DNA from: a virus
Length of the DNA stretch: 25,341 bases
Direction: 5' to 3' (one strand)
Virus genome (UHGV): UHGV-1632499
Shown here: piece by piece, positions 1 through 18,571 of the stretch
Layout: each line of letters opens with the position of its first letter
Numbering within the stretch: the first letter of the stretch is position 1
The notes under the pieces: model-generated
Told to the model about the DNA's origin: nothing
Seen by the model: the letters and a program-made list of their open reading frames with translations, nothing else
Databases searched by the model: none
Translations under genes and position numbers: made by a program

Positions 1-74
1 AGAAGTATGGCTCCCAACTGGAGCTGATATTTCGTTTTATCGATCGCGCGCTGGCGATTGGGGTGTTGGCCTGA
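1..74 (+). CDS. 3' end of an upstream gene, truncated by the window edge; function unknown
   Basis: Open frame runs from the window start to a TGA at 72-74 (...KYGSQLELIFRFIDRALAIGVLA*), directly upstream of Q. No similarity recognised. Confidence 0.25.
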   Translation, partial: KYGSQLELIFRFIDRALAIGVLA

Positions 75-91
75 TTTGGTGGAGAAAGTTG

Positions 92-457
92 ATGCGTGAT
101 ATTCAGATGGTTCTGGAGCGTTGGGGAGCATGGGCGGCGAGTGATAGTTCTGGAGTAGACTATTCGCCTATAGCTGCTGGGTTTAAGGGGCTTCTTCCCT
201 ACACAAGCAAAACACGTCAGGCTTGTTCAGATAGTGATGCATTAATTATTGAAGGTTGTCTTGCTCGTCTAAAGCAAAAAAAGCCAGATGAGCACTCGCT
301 GCTTGTGGCACATTATTTATACAGAATATCCAAGCGTAAGATTGCAAAGGTGCGTGGAAAGGATGAAAAATTGGTACGCATAGAAATACAACTAGCCGAA
401 GGATTTATTGATGGTTGCCTTTCAATGTTGGATGTTAACCTTGAAATGGACGCTTAG
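92..457 (+). CDS. Q: Late-gene antitermination protein Q (short Q family)
   Basis: N-terminus MRDIQMVLERWGAWAA... matches my recollection of short Q antiterminators in E. coli prophages. GGAGAAAG lies upstream of the ATG at 92 (the ORF track begins at a TTG at 89). Position just upstream of the lysis cassette fits. Confidence 0.75.
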   Translation: MRDIQMVLERWGAWAASDSSGVDYSPIAAGFKGLLPYTSKTRQACSDSDALIIEGCLARLKQKKPDEHSLLVAHYLYRISKRKIAKVRGKDEKLVRIEIQLAEGFIDGCLSMLDVNLEMDA

Positions 458-463
458 GGTTGC

Positions 464-493
464 ACAGGTTGGCCCCATATGAGGCCAACCTGT
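464..493. terminator. Perfect 11-bp stem hairpin between convergent Q and the antisense cassette; candidate bidirectional terminator or insulator
   Basis: ACAGGTTGGCC (464-474), 8-nt loop, GGCCAACCTGT (483-493). Sits directly after the Q stop and abuts the stop (493-495) of the minus-strand membrane-protein gene. No canonical U-tract immediately follows on either strand. Confidence 0.35.
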
Positions 494-942
494 CACAAGT
501 GGGGGAAGATTTTTCGTAACACTAACCAACACCTTCCGAAGGTATATAGCGAAATTATAAGGGAGGATAAGCCTAACAGTATGAACAGGAAATCAATAGG
601 TTTGCCCGCAACAATAACATCATCAGGTAGAAACATCGCTATCAATGGAAATATACATGCGACGATGAGAGTTAACCCTGTTGAAAGTAATCTATTTACC
701 AGAGTTGGTAACACGTTGTTTTGCTTAAGGGCATTAATTGCTCCTTCCTTATCGCTGTTTGCACTACTAAATATAGATATTGCAGCCAGAACAAAACCAA
801 ACAGGATGCCTGATATAGTCGAGAGCACCCCCGCTGTTGTGAGTACGTCAGCATGCTTCATCGGTTTAAACAGTTTTGTCGCTGCATAGGTCAACAGAAT
901 CCAGAGGACGCATTTCCAGAGAAAAGTGGCTAATTCTCTCAT
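493..942 (-). CDS. Small integral membrane protein with about four predicted TM helices; second gene of an antisense two-gene cargo operon
   Basis: ORF track gives 493..954. The internal ATG at 942 is preferred because GGAGGA sits 4 nt upstream of it. Four hydrophobic stretches (FLWKCVLWILLTYAATKLF; VLSTISGILFGFVLAAISIF; LLSTGLTLIVACIFPLIAMFL; IDFLFILLGLSSLIISLYTF). AT-rich compared with neighbouring phage genes. Confidence 0.7.
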   Translation of the reverse strand: MRELATFLWKCVLWILLTYAATKLFKPMKHADVLTTAGVLSTISGILFGFVLAAISIFSSANSDKEGAINALKQNNVLPTLVNRLLSTGLTLIVACIFPLIAMFLPDDVIVAGKPIDFLFILLGLSSLIISLYTFGRCWLVLRKIFPHL

Positions 943-963
943 TGTGTCCTCCATGCTTGGTTA

Positions 964-1905
964 TTAGTCTCTGCTAGCGAGCTCATACTGTGCAAGATAG
1001 TTCGCGTTATCAATTTTAGCAGATATCATCGCCGTTCTGATATCAGAATCGGATGGATAACCGCTTTTGACAATGATTGTCTTTGTACTGACCAATACTT
1101 GGTCAAGTAGACTTTTGGGCGTTCTATTGGATGGCTCTGTTACATCAATTTTTTTAATTTTTAGACCTCCAGAACCTTTTGGAAAAAGTTCAAGTAGTTC
1201 CTTAATAGCATCGGTGACAGAAGTTTTTAGATAGTTAAACCCTTGTTTTTTCGGGCGAATCCGACCTCGCATATTTAATCTTAGATGCGACCCGCCCATA
1301 CCAACAACCATGTCAATAATTTCATTAGCTAAAGGGTTTTTAATCTTATAATTAGCTTTGTTAAAGTTTCTTGGAGCAGCAACTATAAGATCGAAACTAC
1401 GTAGGATATTTCCGTCCTCAAGCAGTTCCTTCATGCTCTCTTGTTTCCAAATGGCTTCAAAAGTGACGCTTTTTAAATCAGTTTTGTTATACAAAATGAA
1501 TGCCAGATCATTTACTTTGGGCCCTATATGGTTGAGGGTCATAGCTAATAAGTCCGTTTCGTAGTAATAGATAAAATATGTTCTTTCAACTACAGAATCT
1601 TTATCATTTAAAGGAATTGTTCTCTCACTACCTGTAGCATCCTCGATGAACGGTAGTAGGCATTCCCTTCTCCACGATACGTAACCAAAGTAACATTGCA
1701 GTGTGGTATCTTTTTGAAGAATAACTAACTTTAACCCTCGATTTGGGGTGTCTGTTGTGTAAGTTATTGGAAAAGTTACAGTATCTGCTGTGGTCATTTG
1801 CTCAAAGGCTAGTTTTGCAGCAGATGTGCCATCTTTTTTGCTTCCATTACCAGTGAAAAAACCAACTCTCACTCGCCTGGTTTTATTCTTATTTTCTGTA
1901 CTCAT
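964..1905 (-). CDS. Hypothetical 313-aa soluble protein of unknown function; first gene of the antisense two-gene cargo operon
   Basis: Long uninterrupted ORF on the minus strand, followed 21 nt later by the membrane-protein gene (operon-like spacing). AT-rich. No motif I can assign; no GS...DxD nucleotidyltransferase signature, no obvious nuclease or ATPase motif. Confidence 0.7.
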   Translation of the reverse strand: MSTENKNKTRRVRVGFFTGNGSKKDGTSAAKLAFEQMTTADTVTFPITYTTDTPNRGLKLVILQKDTTLQCYFGYVSWRRECLLPFIEDATGSERTIPLNDKDSVVERTYFIYYYETDLLAMTLNHIGPKVNDLAFILYNKTDLKSVTFEAIWKQESMKELLEDGNILRSFDLIVAAPRNFNKANYKIKNPLANEIIDMVVGMGGSHLRLNMRGRIRPKKQGFNYLKTSVTDAIKELLELFPKGSGGLKIKKIDVTEPSNRTPKSLLDQVLVSTKTIIVKSGYPSDSDIRTAMISAKIDNANYLAQYELASRD

Positions 1906-1965
1906 TATCGATCCGAAATAATTTTAGCAACCGTGTGAAAAATACAACAAAAAAAAGAGGAAATC

Positions 1966-1994
1966 ATTAGCGCGGTCCGCAAAAAACATTGTAA
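1966..1994 (+). promoter_or_regulatory. Candidate sigma70 late promoter (pR'-like) upstream of the terminator and lysis genes
   Basis: TTAGCG (1966-1971), 17-bp spacer, TGTAAT (1989-1994). Located where a Q-dependent late promoter is expected. Match to consensus is weak. Confidence 0.2.
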
Positions 1995-2027
1995 TCTGTT
2001 AAGAGTGGTTACTTCGCCACACAGCTT

Positions 2028-2057
2028 AAACCCGCCGTCGAGCGGGTTTTGTCGTTT
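2028..2057 (+). terminator. Rho-independent terminator, probably the tR'-like late terminator that Q reads through
   Basis: AAACCCGC (2028-2035), 6-nt loop, GCGGGTTT (2042-2049), then a T-rich tract TGTCGTTTCTG. Lies between Q and the holin, as tR' does in lambdoid phages. Confidence 0.55.
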
Positions 2058-2201
2058 CTGTGGCTGGGGATTCGTTGGTCCTGGCCTATTCCGCAGTTCT
2101 CCATCGGTTCGGCTTCTTTGATGTTTCCGCTTCTGATTTGCGGTACATGATGTTCCCTCAATTTGCACCTGCTGTATCAGCGAGGTGAGAGATAACTACA
2201 A

Positions 2202-2528
2202 ATGCCTCATAACCCAAATACCTGGCTGGAGTTGGTCCAGAGCTGGTGGCGTGGAGACACACCGCTGGGCGCAGTGATTATGTCGATCGTTATGGCTGGC
2301 TTGCGCATTGCCTATTTTGGCGGTGGTGGTGGCTGGAAACGAAAAACGCTCGAGATTTTGCTCTGTGGTGCTCTGACGCTGACTTTTGCATCCGCTCTTG
2401 AGTATGTCGGATGGCCTAAATCTCTTTCTGTTGCCATTGGTGGCGGCGTTGGGCTGATCGGGGTCGATGCTATTCGTGGGGCTGCAATGAGAGTAATCGG
2501 TAATAAGTTTGGTGGCTCTAAGGAGTAA
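2202..2528 (+). CDS. Holin (class I, three predicted TM segments)
   Basis: 108 aa with three hydrophobic segments and a charged C-terminus, immediately upstream of the R endolysin. GAGGTGAGAG lies upstream of the ATG. Confidence 0.75.
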   Translation: MPHNPNTWLELVQSWWRGDTPLGAVIMSIVMAGLRIAYFGGGGGWKRKTLEILLCGALTLTFASALEYVGWPKSLSVAIGGGVGLIGVDAIRGAAMRVIGNKFGGSKE

Positions 2529-2531
2529 TTT

Positions 2532-3014
2532 ATGCAGGTACTAAATTCCCAGCGTAAAGCTTTCCTCGATATGGTGGCATGGTCAGAAGGAACGGATAAC
2601 GGGCGACAACCGACACGTAACCACGGTTATGACGTTATTGTCGGAGGTGAACTGTTCACTGATTACTCCGATCACCCTCGCAAACTTGTCACGCTAAACC
2701 CGAAACTTAAATCAACAGCCGCAGGACGTTATCAGCTTCTTTCACGCTGGTGGGATGCTTACCGTAAGCAGCTTGGGCTGAAAGACTTCTCTCCAAAAAG
2801 CCAGGATGCTGTGGCATTGCAGCAGATTAAAGAGCGTGGTGCTTTACCGATGATTGATCGCGGCGATATCCGTCAGGCTATTGATCGTTGCAGCAATATC
2901 TGGGCGTCATTGCCGGGCGCTGGTTATGGTCAGTTCGAACATAAGGTTGACAGCCTGATTGAAAAATTCAAAGAATCGGGCGGAACGGTCAGAGAAATTC
3001 AGCTATATGAGTAG
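2532..3014 (+). CDS. R: Endolysin, lambda R-type lytic transglycosylase
   Basis: Near-identical over most of its length to lambda R as I recall it ([134 protein letters not shown]). AAGGAG RBS upstream. Confidence 0.95.
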
Positions 3015-3471
3015 AGTAACTGCGATTCTGTCCTCTCTGGTTATCTGCACCATCGTCTGCCTATCATGGGCTGTTAATCATTATCGTGATAACGCCATCG
3101 CCTACAAAGAACAGCGCGATAAAGCGAAGGAAAAACTCAGCCAGGCGAACGCCACCATTACTGAGATGCAGCAGCGCCAGCGTGATGTTTCTGCGCTCGA
3201 TGCGAAATACACCGGAGAACTTGCAAATGCTAAAGCAACTATTGAACAGCTTCAGCGTGATGTTGCTGTTGGCACTAAGCGGCTGTTCCTCGCCGCTAGT
3301 TGCCCGAGAGTGCAATCAACGACCATTACCACCAGCCTGGATGATGCTACCGCCCCCCGACTTACTGACACCGCTCAACGGGATTATTTCACCCTCAGAG
3401 AGAGAATTGAAATCAGTTATAAACAGATAAGAGCATTGCAGGACTATATCTCTAGTCAGTGTGAAAAATAA
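3007..3471 (+). CDS. Rz: Rz inner-membrane spanin (i-spanin)
   Basis: [34 protein letters not shown]... closely resembles lambda Rz. The start overlaps the R stop as in lambda. ORF track begins earlier, at 2959. Confidence 0.9.
3227..3430 (+). CDS. Rz1: Rz1 outer-membrane lipoprotein spanin (o-spanin), embedded in the +1 frame of Rz
   Basis: Within ORF 3086..3430, the internal ATG at 3227 gives [22 protein letters not shown]... (lipobox LSGC) followed by a proline-rich [26 protein letters not shown], like lambda Rz1. Confidence 0.85.
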
Positions 3472-3528
3472 AATTGCTTTCGATGTATGGATCTGGACAT
3501 CTTTTTTTTCTACTATGCTGACTGAGAA

Positions 3529-4311
3529 TTGAAACGTATATGGATATTCTATATGAAAAGAAAAAAATTAGAAGGTCCCGGGTGTGAATCATATGAAGGG
3601 TTAGATGTTGAATATTATATTGATTCCGAAACGGGGGAATTTAAAGCGGTTTATACATTCAATAATGAAATTGTAGATCGCATAAAATTGAGTGGGCGTA
3701 TTGCCGATAGAGCATCTTCACTGTCCCTAATTCATAGGGACTTAAAAAGTGCTAAAGAGTGGTACCAAATAGCTAATGAACTGGCAGGGAGAAATGAATT
3801 AAGGACAGATGGCAAGTTATACGGGAATATACTTGATCTAGATTTATCAAGTGAAATTAGAGCGTTATTTGTGGCAAGCCTAACGTTTTATGGTAAAGCT
3901 TTCTCTGAAGCTAAAGGGAGAAAGTTAAAGATGGAGCGTGATTGGCTTGATTCTGAATATTTTGGGTTGCATGACTGTATTATTAACTACAGGCATAATT
4001 TTGCAGCACATAGCGGCAACCAAGACTATGAGTCAGCAGAAACTTCATTGTTACTAATAAGGAAAAATGGGAAAACATTTTATCAAGCAGTGACAGATAG
4101 AAAACAACTGAGCATGATTGGTGTCGAGGACGAGCATGTTGATATGATTAATTTATTTGAACATGCGATACAGGTTGTTGAGAAAAAATATAATGAAACA
4201 TTAGAGAGAATTAGAACCTATGTCATGCAAAAGAGTTATTCTTTTTGGTGTTTAGCTGCCACAGGGAAAGATCCCGTCAATTTAGATAAGTTAAATAAGA
4301 AGAAAAAATAA
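3529..4311 (+). CDS. Hypothetical 260-aa protein; AT-rich orphan cargo gene between spanins and the packaging module
   Basis: Strongly AT-rich and lysine-rich ORF unlike its neighbours, followed by its own terminator. ORF track start at 3529 is a TTG; the first ATG is at 3553 (MKRKKLEGPG...). No family recognised. Confidence 0.65.
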   Translation: MKRIWIFYMKRKKLEGPGCESYEGLDVEYYIDSETGEFKAVYTFNNEIVDRIKLSGRIADRASSLSLIHRDLKSAKEWYQIANELAGRNELRTDGKLYGNILDLDLSSEIRALFVASLTFYGKAFSEAKGRKLKMERDWLDSEYFGLHDCIINYRHNFAAHSGNQDYESAETSLLLIRKNGKTFYQAVTDRKQLSMIGVEDEHVDMINLFEHAIQVVEKKYNETLERIRTYVMQKSYSFWCLAATGKDPVNLDKLNKKKK

Positions 4312-4347
4312 ACCTACTCTTCACATTAGTAACATTAGTAGATGCTA

Positions 4348-4377
4348 AGCCACTAGCAATCGATGGTGGCTTTTTTA
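4348..4377 (+). terminator. Rho-independent terminator downstream of the 260-aa cargo gene
   Basis: AGCCAC (4348-4353), loop, GTGGCT (4366-4371), running into TTTTTTATT. Confidence 0.5.
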
Positions 4378-4390
4378 TTGGAGCTTACCA

Positions 4391-4741
4391 ATGCCACCAC
4401 GAACCCCAAAAGCCTGCCGTGTTCGCGGCTGCCGCTCTACAACCACAGACCCGTCAGGCTACTGCGAAAGCCACAAAAGCGAAGGCTGGAAGCAATACAA
4501 GCCAGGTCAGTCCCGTCATCAGCGCGGTTATGGTTCGAAGTGGGACGCTATCCGCGCGCGTGTGCTGAAGCGTGACAAAGGTTTATGTCAGTTATGTCTG
4601 CGTGCCGGTGTGGTGCGTGAGGCGAAAACCGTTGACCACATCATCCCTAAAGCGCATGGCGGCACTGATGCCGACTGTAATCTGCAGAGTCTGTGTTGGC
4701 CGTGTCATAAGGCGAAGACGGCCCGTGAACGGTTAAAGTGA
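4391..4741 (+). CDS. HNH homing-type endonuclease associated with the terminase
   Basis: Cys-rich N-terminus (CRVRGCRSTTTDPSGYCESH), HNH core (DHIIPKAHGG...NLQSLCWPCH), and position directly upstream of the terminase small subunit as in HK97-like packaging modules. Confidence 0.85.
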   Translation: MPPRTPKACRVRGCRSTTTDPSGYCESHKSEGWKQYKPGQSRHQRGYGSKWDAIRARVLKRDKGLCQLCLRAGVVREAKTVDHIIPKAHGGTDADCNLQSLCWPCHKAKTARERLK

Positions 4742-4767
4742 TAATAACTCTCAACTGTCTGAGGGGA

Positions 4768-4827
4768 GGGGCGGGTCACATCCCTGTGACCTGACGTCTT
4801 CCGGACTGCCCGCCCCATCGTTTTTTT
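4768..4827 (+). terminator. Nested hairpin plus T-tract between HNH and terS; terminator and/or cos-region structure
   Basis: Outer stem GGGGCGGG (4768-4775) pairs with CCCGCCCC (4809-4816). Inner palindromes GTCACA/TGTGAC and TCCGGA. Followed by ATCGTTTTTTTATA. Confidence 0.4.
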
Positions 4828-12403: not shown

Positions 12404-12574
12404 ATGTTTGTCAAACCTGTTAAAGGGCGGTCAGTTCCTGACCCTGCCCGCGGCGACCTTTTGCCCGCCGAAGGGCGAAATGTTGACGAGAACAACTACT
12501 GGCTGCGCCGTGAAGCAGCGGGTGATATCCGGCGCGTGAATAAAAAGGTGAACACCGATGACGATAAGTTTTAA
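12404..12574 (+). CDS. Small conserved protein preceding the tail sheath (DUF2635-like)
   Basis: 56-aa ORF absent from the ORF track (under 60 aa): MFVKPVKGRSVPDPARGDLLPAEGRNVDENNYWLRREAAGDIRRVNKKVNTDDDKF. GAGGA RBS at 12395-12399. Resembles the small protein I recall upstream of Mu-like sheath genes. Its 3' end overlaps the sheath start. Confidence 0.5.
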   Translation: MFVKPVKGRSVPDPARGDLLPAEGRNVDENNYWLRREAAGDIRRVNKKVNTDDDKF

Positions 12575-14054
12575 CACCATTCCGTCGAATACGCTGGTTC
12601 CGCTGTTTTATGCGGAAATGGATAACCAGGCGGCGAATACTGCACAGGACAGCGGAGCATCGCTGCTGATTGGTCATGCCAATAACGGTGCAGAGATTGT
12701 TGCCAACAGTCTGGTACTGATGCCGTCGGCAGACTATGCACGCCAGATTTGTGGTGCGGGAAGTCAGCTGGCGCGTATGGTCGAGGCTTATCGCCAGACT
12801 GACCCGTTTGGCGAGCTGTATGTGATTGCCGTTCCTGAATCCACAGGCGCGGCGGCAACGGTTACGCTGACGGTGACCGGGGCGGCAACCGAAACCGGCA
12901 CGGTGAATGTGTATGTGGGACGTACCCGCGTGCAGGCTCCGGTGACCAACGGCGATAACGTCACGACGATTGCCAGCAGTATCCAGGATGCCATCAATGC
13001 CGTTCCGGCCCTGCCGTTTACGGCTTCATCTTCGGCAGGCGTGGTCACACTGACCGCGCGTCATAAGGGGCTTTGCGGGAATGAAATTCCTGTCAGCCTC
13101 AATTACTACGGCTTTGGTGGGGGCGAAGTGCTGCCAGCGGGCGTACAGATTGCCGTGGCGACGGGTACCGCCGGAACGGGTGCTCCGGTTCTCACCGGCG
13201 CGGTGGCTGCAATGGCGGATGAGCCGTTTGATTATATCGGCCTGCCGTTCAACGACACGGCCTCCGTTAACACGCTGGTGACCGAGATGAACGATACCAG
13301 CGGTCGCTGGAGCTATGCGCGTCAGCTGTATGGTCATGTGTATACGGCAAAGATCGGCACGCTGTCAGAACTGGTGACCGCAGGTGACCAGTTTAACCAG
13401 CAGCACATTACCCTGGCGGGGTACGAAAAAGAGACTCAGACGCCTGCCGACGAACTGGCGGCAAGCCGTACCGCCCGCGCAGCGGTGTTTATTCGCAACG
13501 ATCCGGCACGTCCCACGCAGACCGGTGAGCTGGTGGGTATGCTGCCTGCGCCGAAGGGGAAACGGTTCACGATGACCGAACAACAGACCCTGCTGTCTCA
13601 TGGCGTGGCAACGGCGTATGTCGAAAGCGGGGTACTGCGCATTCAGCGTGATGTCACCACGTACAGGAAAAACGCTTACGGGGTTGCGGATAACAGCTAC
13701 CTAGACAGTGAGACTCTGCATACCAGCGCGTATGTACTGCGCAAACTGAAATCCGTCATTACCAGTAAGTACGGGCGTCACAAGCTTGCCAGTGACGGTA
13801 CCCGCTTTGGTCCCGGTCAGGCGATTGTCACCCCGGCGGTGATCAAAGGGGAACTGCTGGCAACCTACCGTCAGCTTGAGCGTGCGGGGATCGTGGAAAA
13901 CTACGAACTGTTTAAGCAGTACCTGGTTGTGGAGCGTGATGCCAGCGATCCGAACCGCCTGAACACGCTGTTCCCGCCTGACTATGTTAACCAGTTGCGT
14001 GTCTTTGCCGTGGTTAACCAGTTCCGTCTTCAGTATTCAGAGGAGTCCGCATAA
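12558..14054 (+). CDS. Contractile tail sheath protein (Mu gpL-like)
   Basis: 498 aa, directly upstream of the tube gene; size and order typical of Mu-like myovirus tails. Confidence 0.85.
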   Translation: MTISFNTIPSNTLVPLFYAEMDNQAANTAQDSGASLLIGHANNGAEIVANSLVLMPSADYARQICGAGSQLARMVEAYRQTDPFGELYVIAVPESTGAAATVTLTVTGAATETGTVNVYVGRTRVQAPVTNGDNVTTIASSIQDAINAVPALPFTASSSAGVVTLTARHKGLCGNEIPVSLNYYGFGGGEVLPAGVQIAVATGTAGTGAPVLTGAVAAMADEPFDYIGLPFNDTASVNTLVTEMNDTSGRWSYARQLYGHVYTAKIGTLSELVTAGDQFNQQHITLAGYEKETQTPADELAASRTARAAVFIRNDPARPTQTGELVGMLPAPKGKRFTMTEQQTLLSHGVATAYVESGVLRIQRDVTTYRKNAYGVADNSYLDSETLHTSAYVLRKLKSVITSKYGRHKLASDGTRFGPGQAIVTPAVIKGELLATYRQLERAGIVENYELFKQYLVVERDASDPNRLNTLFPPDYVNQLRVFAVVNQFRLQYSEESA

Positions 14055-14410
14055 TGGCCCGTATCGGGGGAACCTGTTATTTCAAAATTGACGGTCAGCA
14101 GCTATCGCTGACCGGCGGCATTGAGGTGCCCATGAACAGGACGGTCAATGATGACATCATCGGCCTGGACGGTTCAGTGGACCGCAAGGAAACTCACCGT
14201 GCGCCTTATGTTAAAGGGACCTTCAAGGTGCCGAAGAATTTTCCGGTGAGCAAAATCACCTCGTCTGATGAGATGACCATCACTGCCGAGCTGGCGAACG
14301 GTCAGGTCTATGTACTGTCGTCTGCCTGGCTGCACGGCGAAGCGAACCATAATGCCGAAGAAGGCACGGTTGATCTTGAGTTCCACGGTGAAGAAGGGGA
14401 TTACCAGTAA
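14054..14410 (+). CDS. Tail tube protein (Mu gpM-like)
   Basis: 118 aa, translationally coupled after the sheath gene. Confidence 0.8.
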   Translation: MARIGGTCYFKIDGQQLSLTGGIEVPMNRTVNDDIIGLDGSVDRKETHRAPYVKGTFKVPKNFPVSKITSSDEMTITAELANGQVYVLSSAWLHGEANHNAEEGTVDLEFHGEEGDYQ

Positions 14411-14679
14411 TGAAAGAGCTTGAGTTAAAGAAACCGATTACTGCTCATGGCGAGACACTCTCCGTACTTGAGTTTGATGAGCCCACCGGGAAAGATGTCC
14501 GCGAACTGGGGTATCCCTACCAGATGAATCAGGATGAGTCAGTCAGACTTCTGGCGCATGTGGTGTCGAAATACATTGTGCGGCTGGCGAAAGTGCCGCA
14601 AAGCTCTGTCGACCAGATGTCTCCGGCAGACCTGAATGCAGCGGCGTGGCTTGTGGCTGGTTTTTTCCTCCAGGCCTGA
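14410..14679 (+). CDS. Tail assembly chaperone, short form
   Basis: 89-aa ORF immediately upstream of the tape measure, ending just after a slippery heptamer. Confidence 0.7.
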   Translation: MKELELKKPITAHGETLSVLEFDEPTGKDVRELGYPYQMNQDESVRLLAHVVSKYIVRLAKVPQSSVDQMSPADLNAAAWLVAGFFLQA

Positions 14680-14828
14680 CGGCTGAATACCTCACTGATC
14701 GCTTCTTTGACTGCGCCAGCTACTGGCGCATTAATCCCTTCGAATTGCTGAATATGCCGATCAGTGAAATTCCCTTGCTGGTCAGTCAGGCAAACAGGAT
14801 AGAGCAGGAGAAACGCACACATGGCTGA
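14410..14828 (+). CDS. Tail assembly chaperone, long form made by programmed -1 ribosomal frameshift
   Basis: Slippery heptamer T TTT TTC at 14661-14667 in the zero frame. The -1 frame (ORF 14646..14828) stays open to 14828, overlapping the tape measure start. This is the conserved chaperone arrangement upstream of tape measure genes. Confidence 0.55.
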
Positions 14829-16653
14829 ATTTGAGCTTAAGGCGTTGATCACCGGTGTCGACAGGCTTTCTCCCGCGCTGTCGAAAATGCAAAAGAAAAT
14901 CCGGGGATTTAAATGCCAGGCGGAAGAAGCGTCACAGGGTGGGCTGGCGCTTGGTGGAGGACTGGCAGCGGGGCTGACGCTTTCCCTGAAATCTTATGCC
15001 GATCAGGAAAACGCCGCTACCGGGCTGAAAGTCGCCATGATGGATGCGAACGGCGAGGTTGGAAAGAGCTTTCAGGACATCAATAAACTGGCTATTGGCC
15101 TGGGTAACCAGCTACCCGGTACAACGGCTGATTTCCAGAACATGATGCAGATGCTGGTGCGTCAGGGGATCCCGGCAGAAAACATTCTGGGTGGTGTGGG
15201 TAAAGCGACAGCTTATCTTGCGGTACAACTGAAAAAAACACCGGAAGCGGCTGCTGAGTTTGCTGCAAAGATGCAGGATGCTACCGGAACGGCGTCAGAA
15301 GACATGATGGGGCTGTTCGACACTATCCAGAAGGCGTTTTATCTGGGCGTTGACGATACCAACATGTTGTCCTTCTTCACTAAAACCAGTTCTGTTCTGA
15401 AGATGGTGAACAAGGACGGTCTTCAGGCTGCACAGAGCCTTGCCCCCATCAGCGTCATGATGGATCAGATGGGGATGAACGGGGAGTCGGCAGGTAATGC
15501 CCTGCGAAAAGTTATCCAGTCCGGATTAAGTGTTAAGAAAATCAGGGACGTCAATAAAGTCATGGCCCGCCAGAAACTCGGGGTACAGCTCGATTTTACT
15601 GACGGCAAAGGAAGTTTTGGCGGTCTTGATAACATGTTCAGGCAACTGGCAAAGTTGCGAAAACTGACCGACGTTAAGCGAACAGGCGTACTTAAGGCAA
15701 TATTTGGTGATGATGCCGAAACCCTTCAGGTGGTCAATGCCCTGATCGATAAAGGAAAGGATGGCTACGATCAGATCCAGCAGAAGATGAATAAACAGGC
15801 CAGCCTGAATAAACGTGTTCAGGCTCAGCTTGGTACGCTGTCCAACCTGTGGGAGGCAATGACGGGGACCGCAACTAACGGTCTTGCAGCTATTGGCGGC
15901 GCATTTTCTGGTGACGCTAAAAATATCACGCAATGGCTGGGGGAGTTGGGGGAAAAATTCACGAAGTTTGCGGATGAAAATCCCCGGGTTATTCGCGGCG
16001 TCGTCGGGCTTGCTGCCGGTCTTGCGATTCTGAAACTGGGATTGATGGGCGTTGGCGGTGCCATCAGTATTGTCAGCAGGATCATGTCGATGACGCCGAT
16101 TGGCATGATTGCGACGGCGATAGCCCTGGCTGCGGGATTAATTATCACTAACTGGGATGTTGTCGGACCTTATTTTAAGAAACTCTGGGAAACCATTGGT
16201 CCTTATTTTGAGGCTGGCTGGGAACTCCTTAAGAAAGTTTTTGCCTGGTCGCCGCTGGGGATGGTGATCAATAACTGGGGGCCGGTTGTTAAGTGGTTTC
16301 AGGATATGTGGGACAAGCTGAAGCCAATTATTGAGTGGTTTACCGACAGTTCCGGTGACACGGTCGATGCCATTAACTCTGCGCAGTGGGGCGCGGGTGC
16401 TTATGATGCTTATGGGGCGGGAATACCGACGCGGGGATACACACCTTATCCGGCGGTAGATCCGGCTCAGTCAAACAACGCCTCCGATGCCACAGGCCCG
16501 AATCCCTTCATGATTAACAAAGCTATCGCGCCAAAAGTTGATGGCGAGATCAAGGTTTCATTTATGAATATGCCACCAGGTATGCGGGTTACGGAAACAC
16601 GTTCCAGTGGCATTGATATTAATCACGATGTTGGGTACACCAGATTTAGGTAA
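14821..16653 (+). CDS. Tail tape measure protein
   Basis: 610 aa, alpha-helical and Ala/Gly-rich, with a hydrophobic segment (VVGLAAGLAILKLGLMGVGGAISIV) and a Trp-rich C-terminal region. Follows the chaperone pair. Confidence 0.9.
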   Translation: MAEFELKALITGVDRLSPALSKMQKKIRGFKCQAEEASQGGLALGGGLAAGLTLSLKSYADQENAATGLKVAMMDANGEVGKSFQDINKLAIGLGNQLPGTTADFQNMMQMLVRQGIPAENILGGVGKATAYLAVQLKKTPEAAAEFAAKMQDATGTASEDMMGLFDTIQKAFYLGVDDTNMLSFFTKTSSVLKMVNKDGLQAAQSLAPISVMMDQMGMNGESAGNALRKVIQSGLSVKKIRDVNKVMARQKLGVQLDFTDGKGSFGGLDNMFRQLAKLRKLTDVKRTGVLKAIFGDDAETLQVVNALIDKGKDGYDQIQQKMNKQASLNKRVQAQLGTLSNLWEAMTGTATNGLAAIGGAFSGDAKNITQWLGELGEKFTKFADENPRVIRGVVGLAAGLAILKLGLMGVGGAISIVSRIMSMTPIGMIATAIALAAGLIITNWDVVGPYFKKLWETIGPYFEAGWELLKKVFAWSPLGMVINNWGPVVKWFQDMWDKLKPIIEWFTDSSGDTVDAINSAQWGAGAYDAYGAGIPTRGYTPYPAVDPAQSNNASDATGPNPFMINKAIAPKVDGEIKVSFMNMPPGMRVTETRSSGIDINHDVGYTRFR

Positions 16654-16685
16654 AGACGAACAGGGAGGGTCGCCCCCCCCTGAAC

Positions 16686-17132
16686 TTACTGTGCGAACAC
16701 GCAATTTCGGCCTGATGGGGAGCCGACAATTCTGGACATTTTTTCGCAAATAACAGTTACTTGTTCTCCTTTTTTAAGAGCAGCAGCTGTTGATTTTTCA
16801 GAGTCTTGCATCTCCATTCTTGCTGGCATGAATTCATTTTCAGTTCTGAATTTAATAATTATAGAGTCAGTAAAGTCCTTATCAATGGATTGTACGATAC
16901 CTCTAACGGCGATTAATTTACCTTTTAACTGTTCATCGGTAGCGACTTCATTTTCTTCATACTCTTTAAACAGCTGTCGAGCAGTAGTGTTGTAGATTTC
17001 TTTTTGCGGTGCCGCAGCTTCCGTATCGGATGAGTATGAAGAATTAGAGCCTTTATCGTTATTGCCTGCAAAATATCCAATAATCACCAACCCGATGAAA
17101 ATATATAAAATCCATTTTAATAATTTCTTCAT
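16686..17132 (-). CDS. Membrane-anchored OB-fold-like protein (tRNA_anti-like family resemblance); antisense cargo gene inside the tail operon
   Basis: N-terminal signal anchor MKKLLKWILYIFIGLVIIGYFAG, then a soluble domain with KGKLIAVRGIVQSIDKDFTDSIIIKF...KGEQVTVICEKM, which resembles tRNA_anti-like OB-fold proteins as I recall them. AT-rich. AAGGTGA RBS. The last roughly 15 codons run into GC-rich phage-like sequence. Confidence 0.7.
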   Translation of the reverse strand: MKKLLKWILYIFIGLVIIGYFAGNNDKGSNSSYSSDTEAAAPQKEIYNTTARQLFKEYEENEVATDEQLKGKLIAVRGIVQSIDKDFTDSIIIKFRTENEFMPARMEMQDSEKSTAAALKKGEQVTVICEKMSRIVGSPSGRNCVFAQ

Positions 17133-17194
17133 GTTATCACCTTAATGCTAATAATTTATATAGTTACAAATGGTAATGGCTACCACTACAAATT

Positions 17195-18571
17195 ATGGCA
17201 TTACCAGTAAATATTACTACTGATAATAAATATGGGACTTATATGACGTGGAAAGACAGGCTTCAGGATGCGTCATTTCGCAGCGTGCCGTTTAAGGTTG
17301 AAGAAGAAAGTGCGGGAACCGGTCGCCGTGTGGAAACACATGAATACCCGAACCGCGACAAGCCCTATACCGAAGATCTGGGAAAAGTCACTTTCCGCCC
17401 GTCCATCACAGCTTATGTGGTGGGAGATGACTGCTTTGACCAGCGCGATCGCCTGATTGAAGCGCTGAATAAACCCGGTCCCGGCACGCTTGTCCACCCG
17501 ACATATGGTGAGCTGAAAGTCTGTGTTGACGGGGAAGTTCGGGTCAGCACATCGAAAAGTGAAGGGCGTATTGTCCGCTTTGACCTGAAGTTTGTCGAAG
17601 CAGGAGAACTCTCTTACCCCACATCAGGTGCGGCGACGGCGCAGACGCTGATGTCATCCTGTTCTGCACTGGATGACTGCATCAGTGACAGCTTCAGCGG
17701 TTTCAGTATCGATGGTGTGGCGGATTTCGTGCAGAACGACGTTATCGGTAATGCCAGCATAATGCTGGGGTATGTTTCTGATGCGATGAAAGTGGTGGAT
17801 TCTGCCGTATCGGATGCCGCCAGGCTGTTGCAGGGGGATATCTCGGTACTTCTGCCGCCGCCATCGTCAGGCAAAAATTTCGTTGAGCAGGTGCAGAAAA
17901 TGTGGCGTACCGGGAAACGCCTTTATGGTAACGCCAGCGACCTGGTCACCATGATCAAAACGCTTTCCGGTGTCAGCCTCGGCAGCGATCTGCAACCGCG
18001 CGGCGTCTGGAAAACGGACAGTAAAGCCACCGCCACGGCGACGCAGCAGCGTAACGTGGTTGCCAGCACCCTTCGTACGACCGCAATCAGCGAAGCGGCG
18101 TATGCCGTCACCCGATTGCCTGCGCCAACAACTTCCGCGGTGATGCAGAATTCCGCAGTGGGGCAGGCAACAACACCCGCGCAGAGCACTGGCTGGCCTT
18201 CCGTCACGCATCCGGCACTGAACAATGCACCGGCGGTGAAAAACACGGTTGACCTGCCGACGTGGGAAGAACTGACTGACATTCGCGACACACTGAATAC
18301 GGCAATTGATAAGGAGTTGTCCCGTACAACCAGCGATGCGCTGTTTCTGGCGCTGCGCCGGGTGAAAGCAGATCTGAATGCGGATATCAACACGCGCCTT
18401 GAACAGTCTGCACGGATCATTCAGCGCACACCGGATGAGGTTTTACCCGCGCTGGTGCTGGCGGCGACCTGGTTTGATAACGCGGCGCGTGACGCGGACA
18501 TTATCCGGCGTAATGCCATTACGCATCCCGGCTTTGTGCCGGAGATCCCTCTGAAGGTGCCAGTGCAATGA
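17195..18571 (+). CDS. Mu N-like DNA circulation protein (tail component)
   Basis: N-terminal region (WKDRLQDASFRSVPFKVEEESAGTGRRVETHEYPNRDKPYTEDLGK) resembles the Mu N DNA-circulation domain. Position after the tape measure. Start is uncertain; an alternative ATG lies at 17243. Confidence 0.75.
   Translation: MALPVNITTDNKYGTYMTWKDRLQDASFRSVPFKVEEESAGTGRRVETHEYPNRDKPYTEDLGKVTFRPSITAYVVGDDCFDQRDRLIEALNKPGPGTLVHPTYGELKVCVDGEVRVSTSKSEGRIVRFDLKFVEAGELSYPTSGAATAQTLMSSCSALDDCISDSFSGFSIDGVADFVQNDVIGNASIMLGYVSDAMKVVDSAVSDAARLLQGDISVLLPPPSSGKNFVEQVQKMWRTGKRLYGNASDLVTMIKTLSGVSLGSDLQPRGVWKTDSKATATATQQRNVVASTLRTTAISEAAYAVTRLPAPTTSAVMQNSAVGQATTPAQSTGWPSVTHPALNNAPAVKNTVDLPTWEELTDIRDTLNTAIDKELSRTTSDALFLALRRVKADLNADINTRLEQSARIIQRTPDEVLPALVLAATWFDNAARDADIIRRNAITHPGFVPEIPLKVPVQ

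Follow-up and report, generated by a model that had tools for sequence, protein, structure and literature searches.

A conserved slippery heptamer in the tail assembly chaperone gene of SfV-type phages and a probable programmed -1 ribosomal frameshift

Results

Tail module and genomic context

The window (the whole stretch of DNA that was analysed, 25,341 nt of the virus genome UHGV-1632499) carries a tail module in which the genes are ordered as sheath, tube, chaperone and tape measure. The genes and the features that concern the chaperone are the following.

12558..14054, + strand: tail sheath gene, 498 aa (Pfam PF04984, PF17482 and PF17481)
14054..14410, + strand: tail tube gene, 118 aa (PF10618 Tail_tube, 2.4e-33)
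14410..14679, + strand: tail assembly chaperone ORF in the zero frame (P2 gpE-like, the 'G' part), 89 aa (ORF list, PF10109)
14661..14667, + strand: slippery heptamer T TTT TTC (X XXY YYZ) in the zero-frame register, read from the sequence
14667..14828, + strand: -1 frame extension (P2 E'-like, the 'T' part), 53 codons and a TGA at 14826-28
14821..16653, + strand: tape measure gene, 610 aa (PF10145 PhageMin_Tail, 5.2e-27)
17195-18571: gene for a Mu-type DNA-circulation protein (Pfam)

The DNA of the window is 98-99% identical to that of the Shigella flexneri phages SfV, SfI and SfII and of Escherichia coli phages of the same type, and by this identity it is classed as an SfV/SfI/SfII-type prophage. 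Phages of this type are lambdoid phages with a Mu-type contractile tail. The sheath gene, which the SfV record labels 'similar to phage Mu GpL', indicates by its presence that the tail is contractile (Mu/P2-type).

Two other regions of the window differ in their distribution among relatives. The left 4.7 kb (window 1-4800) is AT-richer (GC 0.37-0.50) with many A/T homopolymer runs and is located upstream of the point at which the linear SfI, SfII and SfIV genomes start (about 4742-4818), which is presumably cos. Since this left part matches only some relatives (vB_EcoM-689R6 and 720R4), it is taken to be a mosaic late-regulatory or lysis region. In addition, an insertion of about 540 nt (16654-17194) separates the tape measure stop from the DNA-circulation gene, where the gap in SfV is only 46 nt. 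It has a lower GC content (0.47) and contains an ORF on the minus strand (16686-17132) for a 148-aa protein that is hydrophobic at its N-terminus and has a tRNA_anti-like/OB-fold domain (PF12869, 7e-19), and a terminator-like hairpin with a G8/C8 run is found just past the stop of this ORF (16682-16661). No megablast match to the insertion was observed in 50,697 phage records, and it is present in 54-79 of 5,426 complete E. coli genomes, whereas the chaperone region occurs in 1,085 of them. The insertion resembles a moron placed within the tail operon.

Slip site and -1 extension of the chaperone ORF

The ATG of the chaperone ORF overlaps the tail-tube stop by 1 nt (TAATG), and its product was read directly from the sequence to end in ...LVAGFFLQA. 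The protein matches the Pfam family PF10109 (Phage_TAC_7, 'E, or 41 or 14') with an E-value of 1.9e-16 and 60.3 bits against a cut-off of 25. This match covers profile positions 2-78 of 79 and its end coincides with the slip site. Together with the location of the gene between those for tube and tape measure, it bears out the assignment as tail assembly chaperone that an earlier note, made from the sequence of the window, had proposed.

The slippery heptamer consists of a run of six T (14661-14666) and a C at 14667. Because the zero-frame codons GGT (14659-61), TTT (14662-64) and TTC (14665-67) fill 14659-14667, T TTT TTC is correctly phased as X XXY YYZ, and the heptamer that had been reported within the ORF is thus present and in register. 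On the 3' side the zero frame continues with the three sense codons CTC CAG GCC and then TGA at 14677-79. The distance of four codons to the stop that was given before is right only when the stop itself is counted as the fourth.

The -1 frame remains open for 53 codons after the heptamer and its stop overlaps the tape measure ATG (14821) by 8 nt (ATGGCTGA), which agrees with the claim of an open frame of more than 50 codons that reaches 14828 and runs into the tape measure start. An SD-like AGGAG is found ahead of this ATG at 14806-14810. The +1 frame is closed 16 codons after the heptamer. In the ORF list, the -1 frame is represented by a 60-aa ORF which is opened by a GTG at 14646 (14646-14828). 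The predicted fusion joins 14410..14667 to 14667..14825 with C14667 decoded twice, and comprises 86 + 53 = 139 aa with a mass of about 15.5 kDa, where roughly 140 aa had been expected. Across the slip site it would read ...LVAGFF and then PPGLTAEYLTDR, with a predicted junction peptide of ...AGFFPPGLTAEYLTDR.... A profile search of PDB sequences returned no relative, the best E-value being 0.1 for a designed repeat protein, and the single-sequence AlphaFold model of the fusion had a mean pLDDT of 46.5 and was unusable.

Phased heptamers are not rare in the window as about 18 were counted in the approximately 7,400 codons of its long + strand ORFs. None of the other in-register heptamers in the window is located near a 3' end with an extension that continues past the stop. 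The evidence from the single sequence is, on its own, only suggestive of a frameshift.

Conservation of the slip site

With the predicted fusion as query, tblastn recovered 11 further distinct phage lineages (35-88% identity), and these include SfV, AH07, EPP-1, F1055, SfIV and ST64B as well as phiP27, BgVeeders33, DVM-2008, PG1 and PBb002. A phased T TTT TTC, T TTT TTT or T TTT TTG was observed at the homologous codon in all 11. In each of them the -1 frame also reaches within a few bases of the tape measure start, and the predicted fusions are 129-150 aa in length.

Bacterial genomes were scanned with a four-sequence alignment as the query and one genome per species, which returned 27 loci. 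One of the two peptides used in the genome scan contained VAGFF, and the set is thus biased towards loci that keep Phe-Phe, not towards the synonymous bases. The in-register heptamer was found in 25 of these loci (a phased T run in 24, and G GGT TTT in locus L038, which has only four T) and is missing in two, both from Caballeronia. Taken together, 34 distinct related loci, the most distant at approximately 35% protein identity, carry an in-register heptamer at the homologous codon; it is of the T-run type in 33 and G GGT TTT in one. The earlier note had named loss of the site in related phages as grounds for abandoning the frameshift, and the site was instead seen to be kept. In all of these loci but one, where the tape measure gene appears to be deleted, the -1 frame runs to the tape measure start.

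In locus L036 (1440-1877 in a MAG of an uncultured proteobacterium), 143 codons of the -1 frame are open after TTTTTTC, and their end (…RHPGFVPPSPLQVLAV) resembles the C-terminus of the DNA-circulation protein (…THPGFVPEIPLKVPVQ in the window). The tape measure gene seems to have been lost there, and what remains is a decayed tail cluster.

The chaperone region was found in 1,085 of 5,426 complete E. coli genomes, or about one fifth, and the arrangement also occurs in phages or prophages of Shigella, Salmonella, Edwardsiella, Pantoea, Burkholderia, Pseudomonas and Bordetella. We noticed that the residues flanking the slip site vary among the relatives, with GFF, NFF, RFF, SFF, PFL and DFL all observed. 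At the nucleotide level, 13 distinct SfV-type sequences share GGTTTTTTCCT (14659-14669) without change, although 76 of the 83 zero-frame wobble positions vary among them and the Ala wobble position at 14658, immediately before it, takes all four bases. Given the amino acids and the local codon usage, the expectation for the bases of the heptamer is 0.02-0.19 per locus; the required bases were observed in 26 of the 26 loci tested. The tested loci include ones of 60-65% GC, where TTT makes up 14-36% of the Phe codons. We regard this comparative evidence as decisive, and it places the observation well outside what chance would give.

Coding selection in the -1 frame

Upstream of the site, the numbers of variable columns at the three zero-frame codon positions are 34, 22 and 76 of 83, while downstream of it those at the three -1 frame codon positions are 28, 18 and 40 of 49. 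Past the slip site the period-3 pattern thus follows the codons of the -1 frame, and this frame shows the purifying selection of a coding sequence in that part only. Its amino acids are conserved from the codon that directly follows the heptamer (PPGLTA, PSGLTA or PQGLTA), and the extension contains the conserved motif (F/Y)W(R/K)(I/V)(N/D)P.E. The -1 frame residues upstream of the heptamer are unconserved and stops are found 7-10 codons before the site in several relatives.

We also searched for a start of the -1 frame. In 22 of the 34 distinct loci, no ATG, GTG or TTG is present in this frame between the upstream stop and the heptamer. As for the GTG at 14646 in the window, the 16 nt upstream of it (ACCTGAATGCAGCGGC) contain no SD-like sequence.

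Features that are characteristic of the tail-chaperone frameshift class of long-tailed dsDNA phages (Xu, Hendrix and Duda 2004) are a chaperone gene pair between the tube and tape measure genes, a -1 ORF that overlaps the 3' end of the chaperone ORF and has no start of its own, and a phased slippery sequence that lies inside the overlap and is kept in relatives. All of these were found at this locus.

RNA structure around the site

Neither the 53 nt after the site (14668-14720, z +0.45) nor the 93 nt after it (14668-14760, z -1.29) were found to fold better than shuffled sequences. A fold of the alignment of 14 sequences gave only a 3-bp helix near the slip site, and a sliding-window scan of 27 loci gave no conserved structure at the spacing of a stimulator, the distances of the best hairpins varying by clade. 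The search for a downstream RNA stimulator that had been suggested as a check thus came out negative at the canonical spacing in single folds, in the alignment fold and in the 27-locus scan. There is also no SD-like core 6-17 nt upstream of the heptamer (the 17 nt are GCGTGGCTTGTGGCTGG). The locus therefore has neither the hairpin 5-9 nt downstream nor the SD sequence 6-17 nt upstream by which a stimulator-dependent -1 frameshift of the dnaX/IS3 type is recognised.

With no structure at stimulator spacing and no SD-like motif upstream, the efficiency of the frameshift may be low. In measurements made in E. coli, U_UU.U_UU.Y ranks with the most efficient -1 motifs, and its shifting exceeds 0.1% with no stimulator present (Sharma et al. 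2014, PMC4066793).

One strong hairpin was observed further downstream.

14713..14729, + strand: 7-bp hairpin GCGCCAG-cua-CUGGCGC, inside the extension and 45 nt 3' of the heptamer

It has a dG of -14.2 kcal/mol and a z-score of -4.5. Among 13 diverged SfV-type sequences, four wobble positions in it are invariant and only a base of the loop varies; the hairpin is disrupted in locus L024, and ST64B-type and other clades lack it although they have the slip site. As a frameshift stimulator this hairpin was rejected, being too far away and unconserved outside a close subgroup, and it is probably not one. A functional RNA element tied to the recoding or to the expression of the tape measure gene is an unlikely reading of it. 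It might modulate the frameshift at long range, or act as a pausing or stabilising element that only ribosomes translating the -1 frame encounter. Over the homologous ...FHW codons of P2 there is an unrelated hairpin, which is not significant.

Homologs without the heptamer

The two loci without a slippery heptamer belong to Caballeronia cordobensis and C. novacaledonica (L027, 1189-1687, and L030), which have the synonymous GGC TTC TTC in its place. The chaperone of Caballeronia ends in ...MGFFGQDAAGAGA before its stop, and an E'-like domain (…RVFDLAYFWKISPAEVMALS…) is located in the +1 frame just after this stop, preceded by GAGGGG and then GTG. Such a natural variant may produce the two domains as separate proteins, or may use a +1/-2 event of the Mu kind. 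Because these homologs do not have the site, the -1 mechanism is not universal in the chaperone family. The family appears, as far as the sequences compared here indicate, to switch between a -1 shift in the SfV and P2 types, a -2 shift in Mu and, in Caballeronia, an extension that is unlinked or in the +1 frame. If this is true, the switching would offer a natural test of whether the covalent linkage of the two domains is required.

Annotation of the locus

None of the GenBank and RefSeq records that we inspected contains a joined CDS for the 139-aa product. They list only the 89-aa protein, and one adds the -1 ORF as a 'hypothetical protein' (URC08943.1 of vB_EcoM-689R6). In E. coli, the RefSeq PGAP annotation leaves a gap of 141 nt without annotation between chaperone and tape measure. 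The extension alone corresponds to PHROG 32181, of 'unknown function', and neither the fusion nor the extension is modelled in NCBIfam. A chaperone frameshift in SfV-type phages was not found described in the accessible literature, and the phrase 'translational frameshift' was not found in the SfI and SfIV genome papers.

Discussion

A programmed -1 frameshift as the preferred reading

The reading that we hold with high confidence is a programmed -1 ribosomal frameshift in the chaperone gene of SfV-type phages, homologous to that of P2 E/E+E' and functionally equivalent to that of lambda G/GT. Most ribosomes would read 14410-14679 and release the 89-aa chaperone. A minority would slip back by one base on U UUU UUC while the P site (UUU) and the A site (UUC) each hold a tRNA-Phe. 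The two tRNAs would then re-pair on UUU UUU, and the slipped ribosomes would go on with CCU CCA GGC ... to the TGA at 14826-28. The resulting 139-aa product is predicted to consist of the first 86 residues of the chaperone and a C-terminal domain of 53 residues. We infer that the shift is ribosomal, and its efficiency likewise.

On the analogy of lambda, the shared N-terminal part would coat the tape measure protein and the extension would recruit the tube protein, with neither chaperone product ending up in the virion. A fixed frequency of slipping would set the ratio of short to long product for tail assembly, as in lambda and P2. We infer both this ratio-setting role and the protein-protein roles by analogy with those phages.

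An alternative that produces the same 139-aa protein is transcriptional slippage, in which RNA polymerase adds one U on the T6 run to give an mRNA with U7. The protein itself would be indistinguishable from the product of a ribosomal frameshift, a T homopolymer of 6-7 is present in 33 of the 34 loci, and A7 and U7 runs are slippage-prone and under-represented in E. coli genes (PMC4066793). However, the T run keeps the X XXY YYZ register in every case although its flanking residues vary, and codon register is irrelevant to RNA polymerase whereas it is essential to tandem re-pairing of tRNAs. Bacterial RNA polymerase slips appreciably only on runs of about 8-9 or longer, which counts against this alternative, and the phased heptamer is kept in L038 with only four T (G GGT TTT). 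The homologous site of P2 is moreover annotated as a translational frameshift, and we consider transcriptional slippage improbable here. It is highly improbable that the -1 ORF (14646-14828, 60 aa from GTG) is an independent small gene. The GTG does open an ORF of this size, the vB_EcoM-689R6 record annotates it as a hypothetical protein, PHROG 32181 matches it at 4e-40, and the homologous domain in Caballeronia looks separately initiable with its GAGGGG and GTG. Against these points, no SD-like sequence precedes 14646, no start codon of any kind is found upstream of the heptamer in the -1 frame of 22 of the 34 loci, and conservation of this frame starts exactly after the heptamer, the residues upstream of it being unconserved and cut by stops in several relatives.

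We give almost no credence to a chance overlap or to a chaperone gene broken by a frameshift mutation (a pseudogene or an assembly error). T6 runs are common in the window and homopolymers are error-prone, and the only full-length 'in-frame' proteins in the databases come from indel-ridden contigs. Yet the same arrangement, with the zero-frame stop soon after the site, was observed in about 1,085 complete E. coli genomes and in phages or prophages of seven other genera from Shigella to Bordetella, and it is carried by SfV and ST64B, which are isolated plaque-forming phages. Because the conservation is so broad, a pseudogene or sequencing error is excluded. Natural in-frame fusions were also considered: a search of 5.8 billion proteins gave three full-length hits, and these are not real fusions because they show the scattered indels typical of noisy assemblies.

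The programmed -1 frameshift of the SfV-type chaperone belongs to an ordinary and already known class, and it is new only as a missing annotation. As a textbook case, it is of value mainly for annotation. Recognition of the join assigns the orphan PHROG 32181 to the E'/T domain of the tail chaperone, and the comparative set documents a recoding signal that is fixed at synonymous sites even in GC-rich hosts.

Comparison with known recoding systems

The frameshift sites of E. coli dnaX and of IS3-family elements have the same X XXY YYZ mechanism of tandem slippage and the same kind of enterobacterial host, and IS elements use U_UU.U_UU.C, the heptamer of the window, among their motifs. They rely on a downstream hairpin or pseudoknot, an upstream SD sequence or both, whereas neither is present or conserved at the site in the window.

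In phage Mu, the genes for sheath, tube and DNA circulation resemble those of the window, and the chaperone gp41 has a weak PF10109 match and is followed by an E'-like extension. The gp41 chaperone uses a -2 frameshift (Xu et al. 2004 and Baranov et al. 2006, cited through PMC5009743). The extension of Mu is in the +1/-2 frame and is reached through a G-rich site, whereas the window has a plain -1 shift on a U run. Furthermore, Mu gp41 is a protein of 144 aa that matches PF23746 at 9e-35, while the protein of the window matches only PF10109. Neither the PF23746 match nor the +1/-2-frame extension that mark the gp41 family was found in the window.

The lambda G/GT pair occupies the same genomic position, directly upstream of the tape measure gene, and follows the same logic of a short product and a -1 extended product in a fixed ratio (Levin, Hendrix and Casjens 1993 and Xu, Hendrix and Duda 2004, 2013 and 2014, as summarised in PMC5009743). 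The division of labour is presumably also the same, with the shared part binding the tape measure and the extension binding the tube protein. Lambda, however, slips on G GGA AAG with tRNA-Lys and has a non-contractile tail, in contrast to T TTT TTC and the contractile tail of the window, and no sequence similarity was detected between its G/GT and the window proteins.

The closest resemblance was found with P2, where the -1 frameshift of E/E+E' was described by Christie et al. 2002, as cited through PMC3091744. In the P2 record NC_001895, TTTTTTG is annotated as the site of a -1 translational frameshift that joins E to E'. The N-terminal domains are homologous, as P2 E and the window chaperone both match PF10109 positions 2-78, and the aligned slip codons are the same, with GGT TTT TTN after ...V(A/V)G. 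The products are of similar size, with 91 aa for E and 142 aa for E+E' according to the same source, compared to 89 and 139 aa in the window. E+E' also ends 8 nt inside gene T, which is the same overlap as in the window, and the gene is likewise located between the tube and tape measure genes of a contractile tail. A stimulatory structure is missing from both; PMC3091744 states that no downstream hairpin was found in P2-like phages, as in P2 itself. Differences are that the P2 heptamer ends in G and that of the window in C, that the overall identity is only about 21%, and that the tail genes of P2 are FI/FII whereas the neighbours in the window are Mu-type (a gpL-like sheath, a PF10618 tube and a DNA-circulation protein).

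The extension of the window does not match PF06528 (Phage_P2_GpE) even at E<=10, and that of the distant relative PBb002 matches it weakly (E=0.064). The window extension shares with that of P2 an aromatic-W..P.EL motif. Profile-profile alignment (hhalign) of ten fusions with P2 E+E' gave a probability of 95% and an E-value of 3.5e-8 over 122 columns that span both domains. Because this alignment runs through the domain, the extension is a divergent homolog that falls outside the curated PF06528, and it is best seen as a divergent homolog of P2 E'. The same alignment places VAGFF of the window opposite VVGFL of P2, and therefore the slip sites of P2 and of the SfV-type phages are at the same position.

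The match to a G/GT-type frameshift that was put forward in the earlier note thus holds for the class of frameshift, which the conservation and the coding signal support. The kinship needs to be moved from lambda to P2. Judged by these alignments, lambda G/GT is a functional analog only, and the specific homolog of the chaperone pair in the window is P2 E/E+E'.
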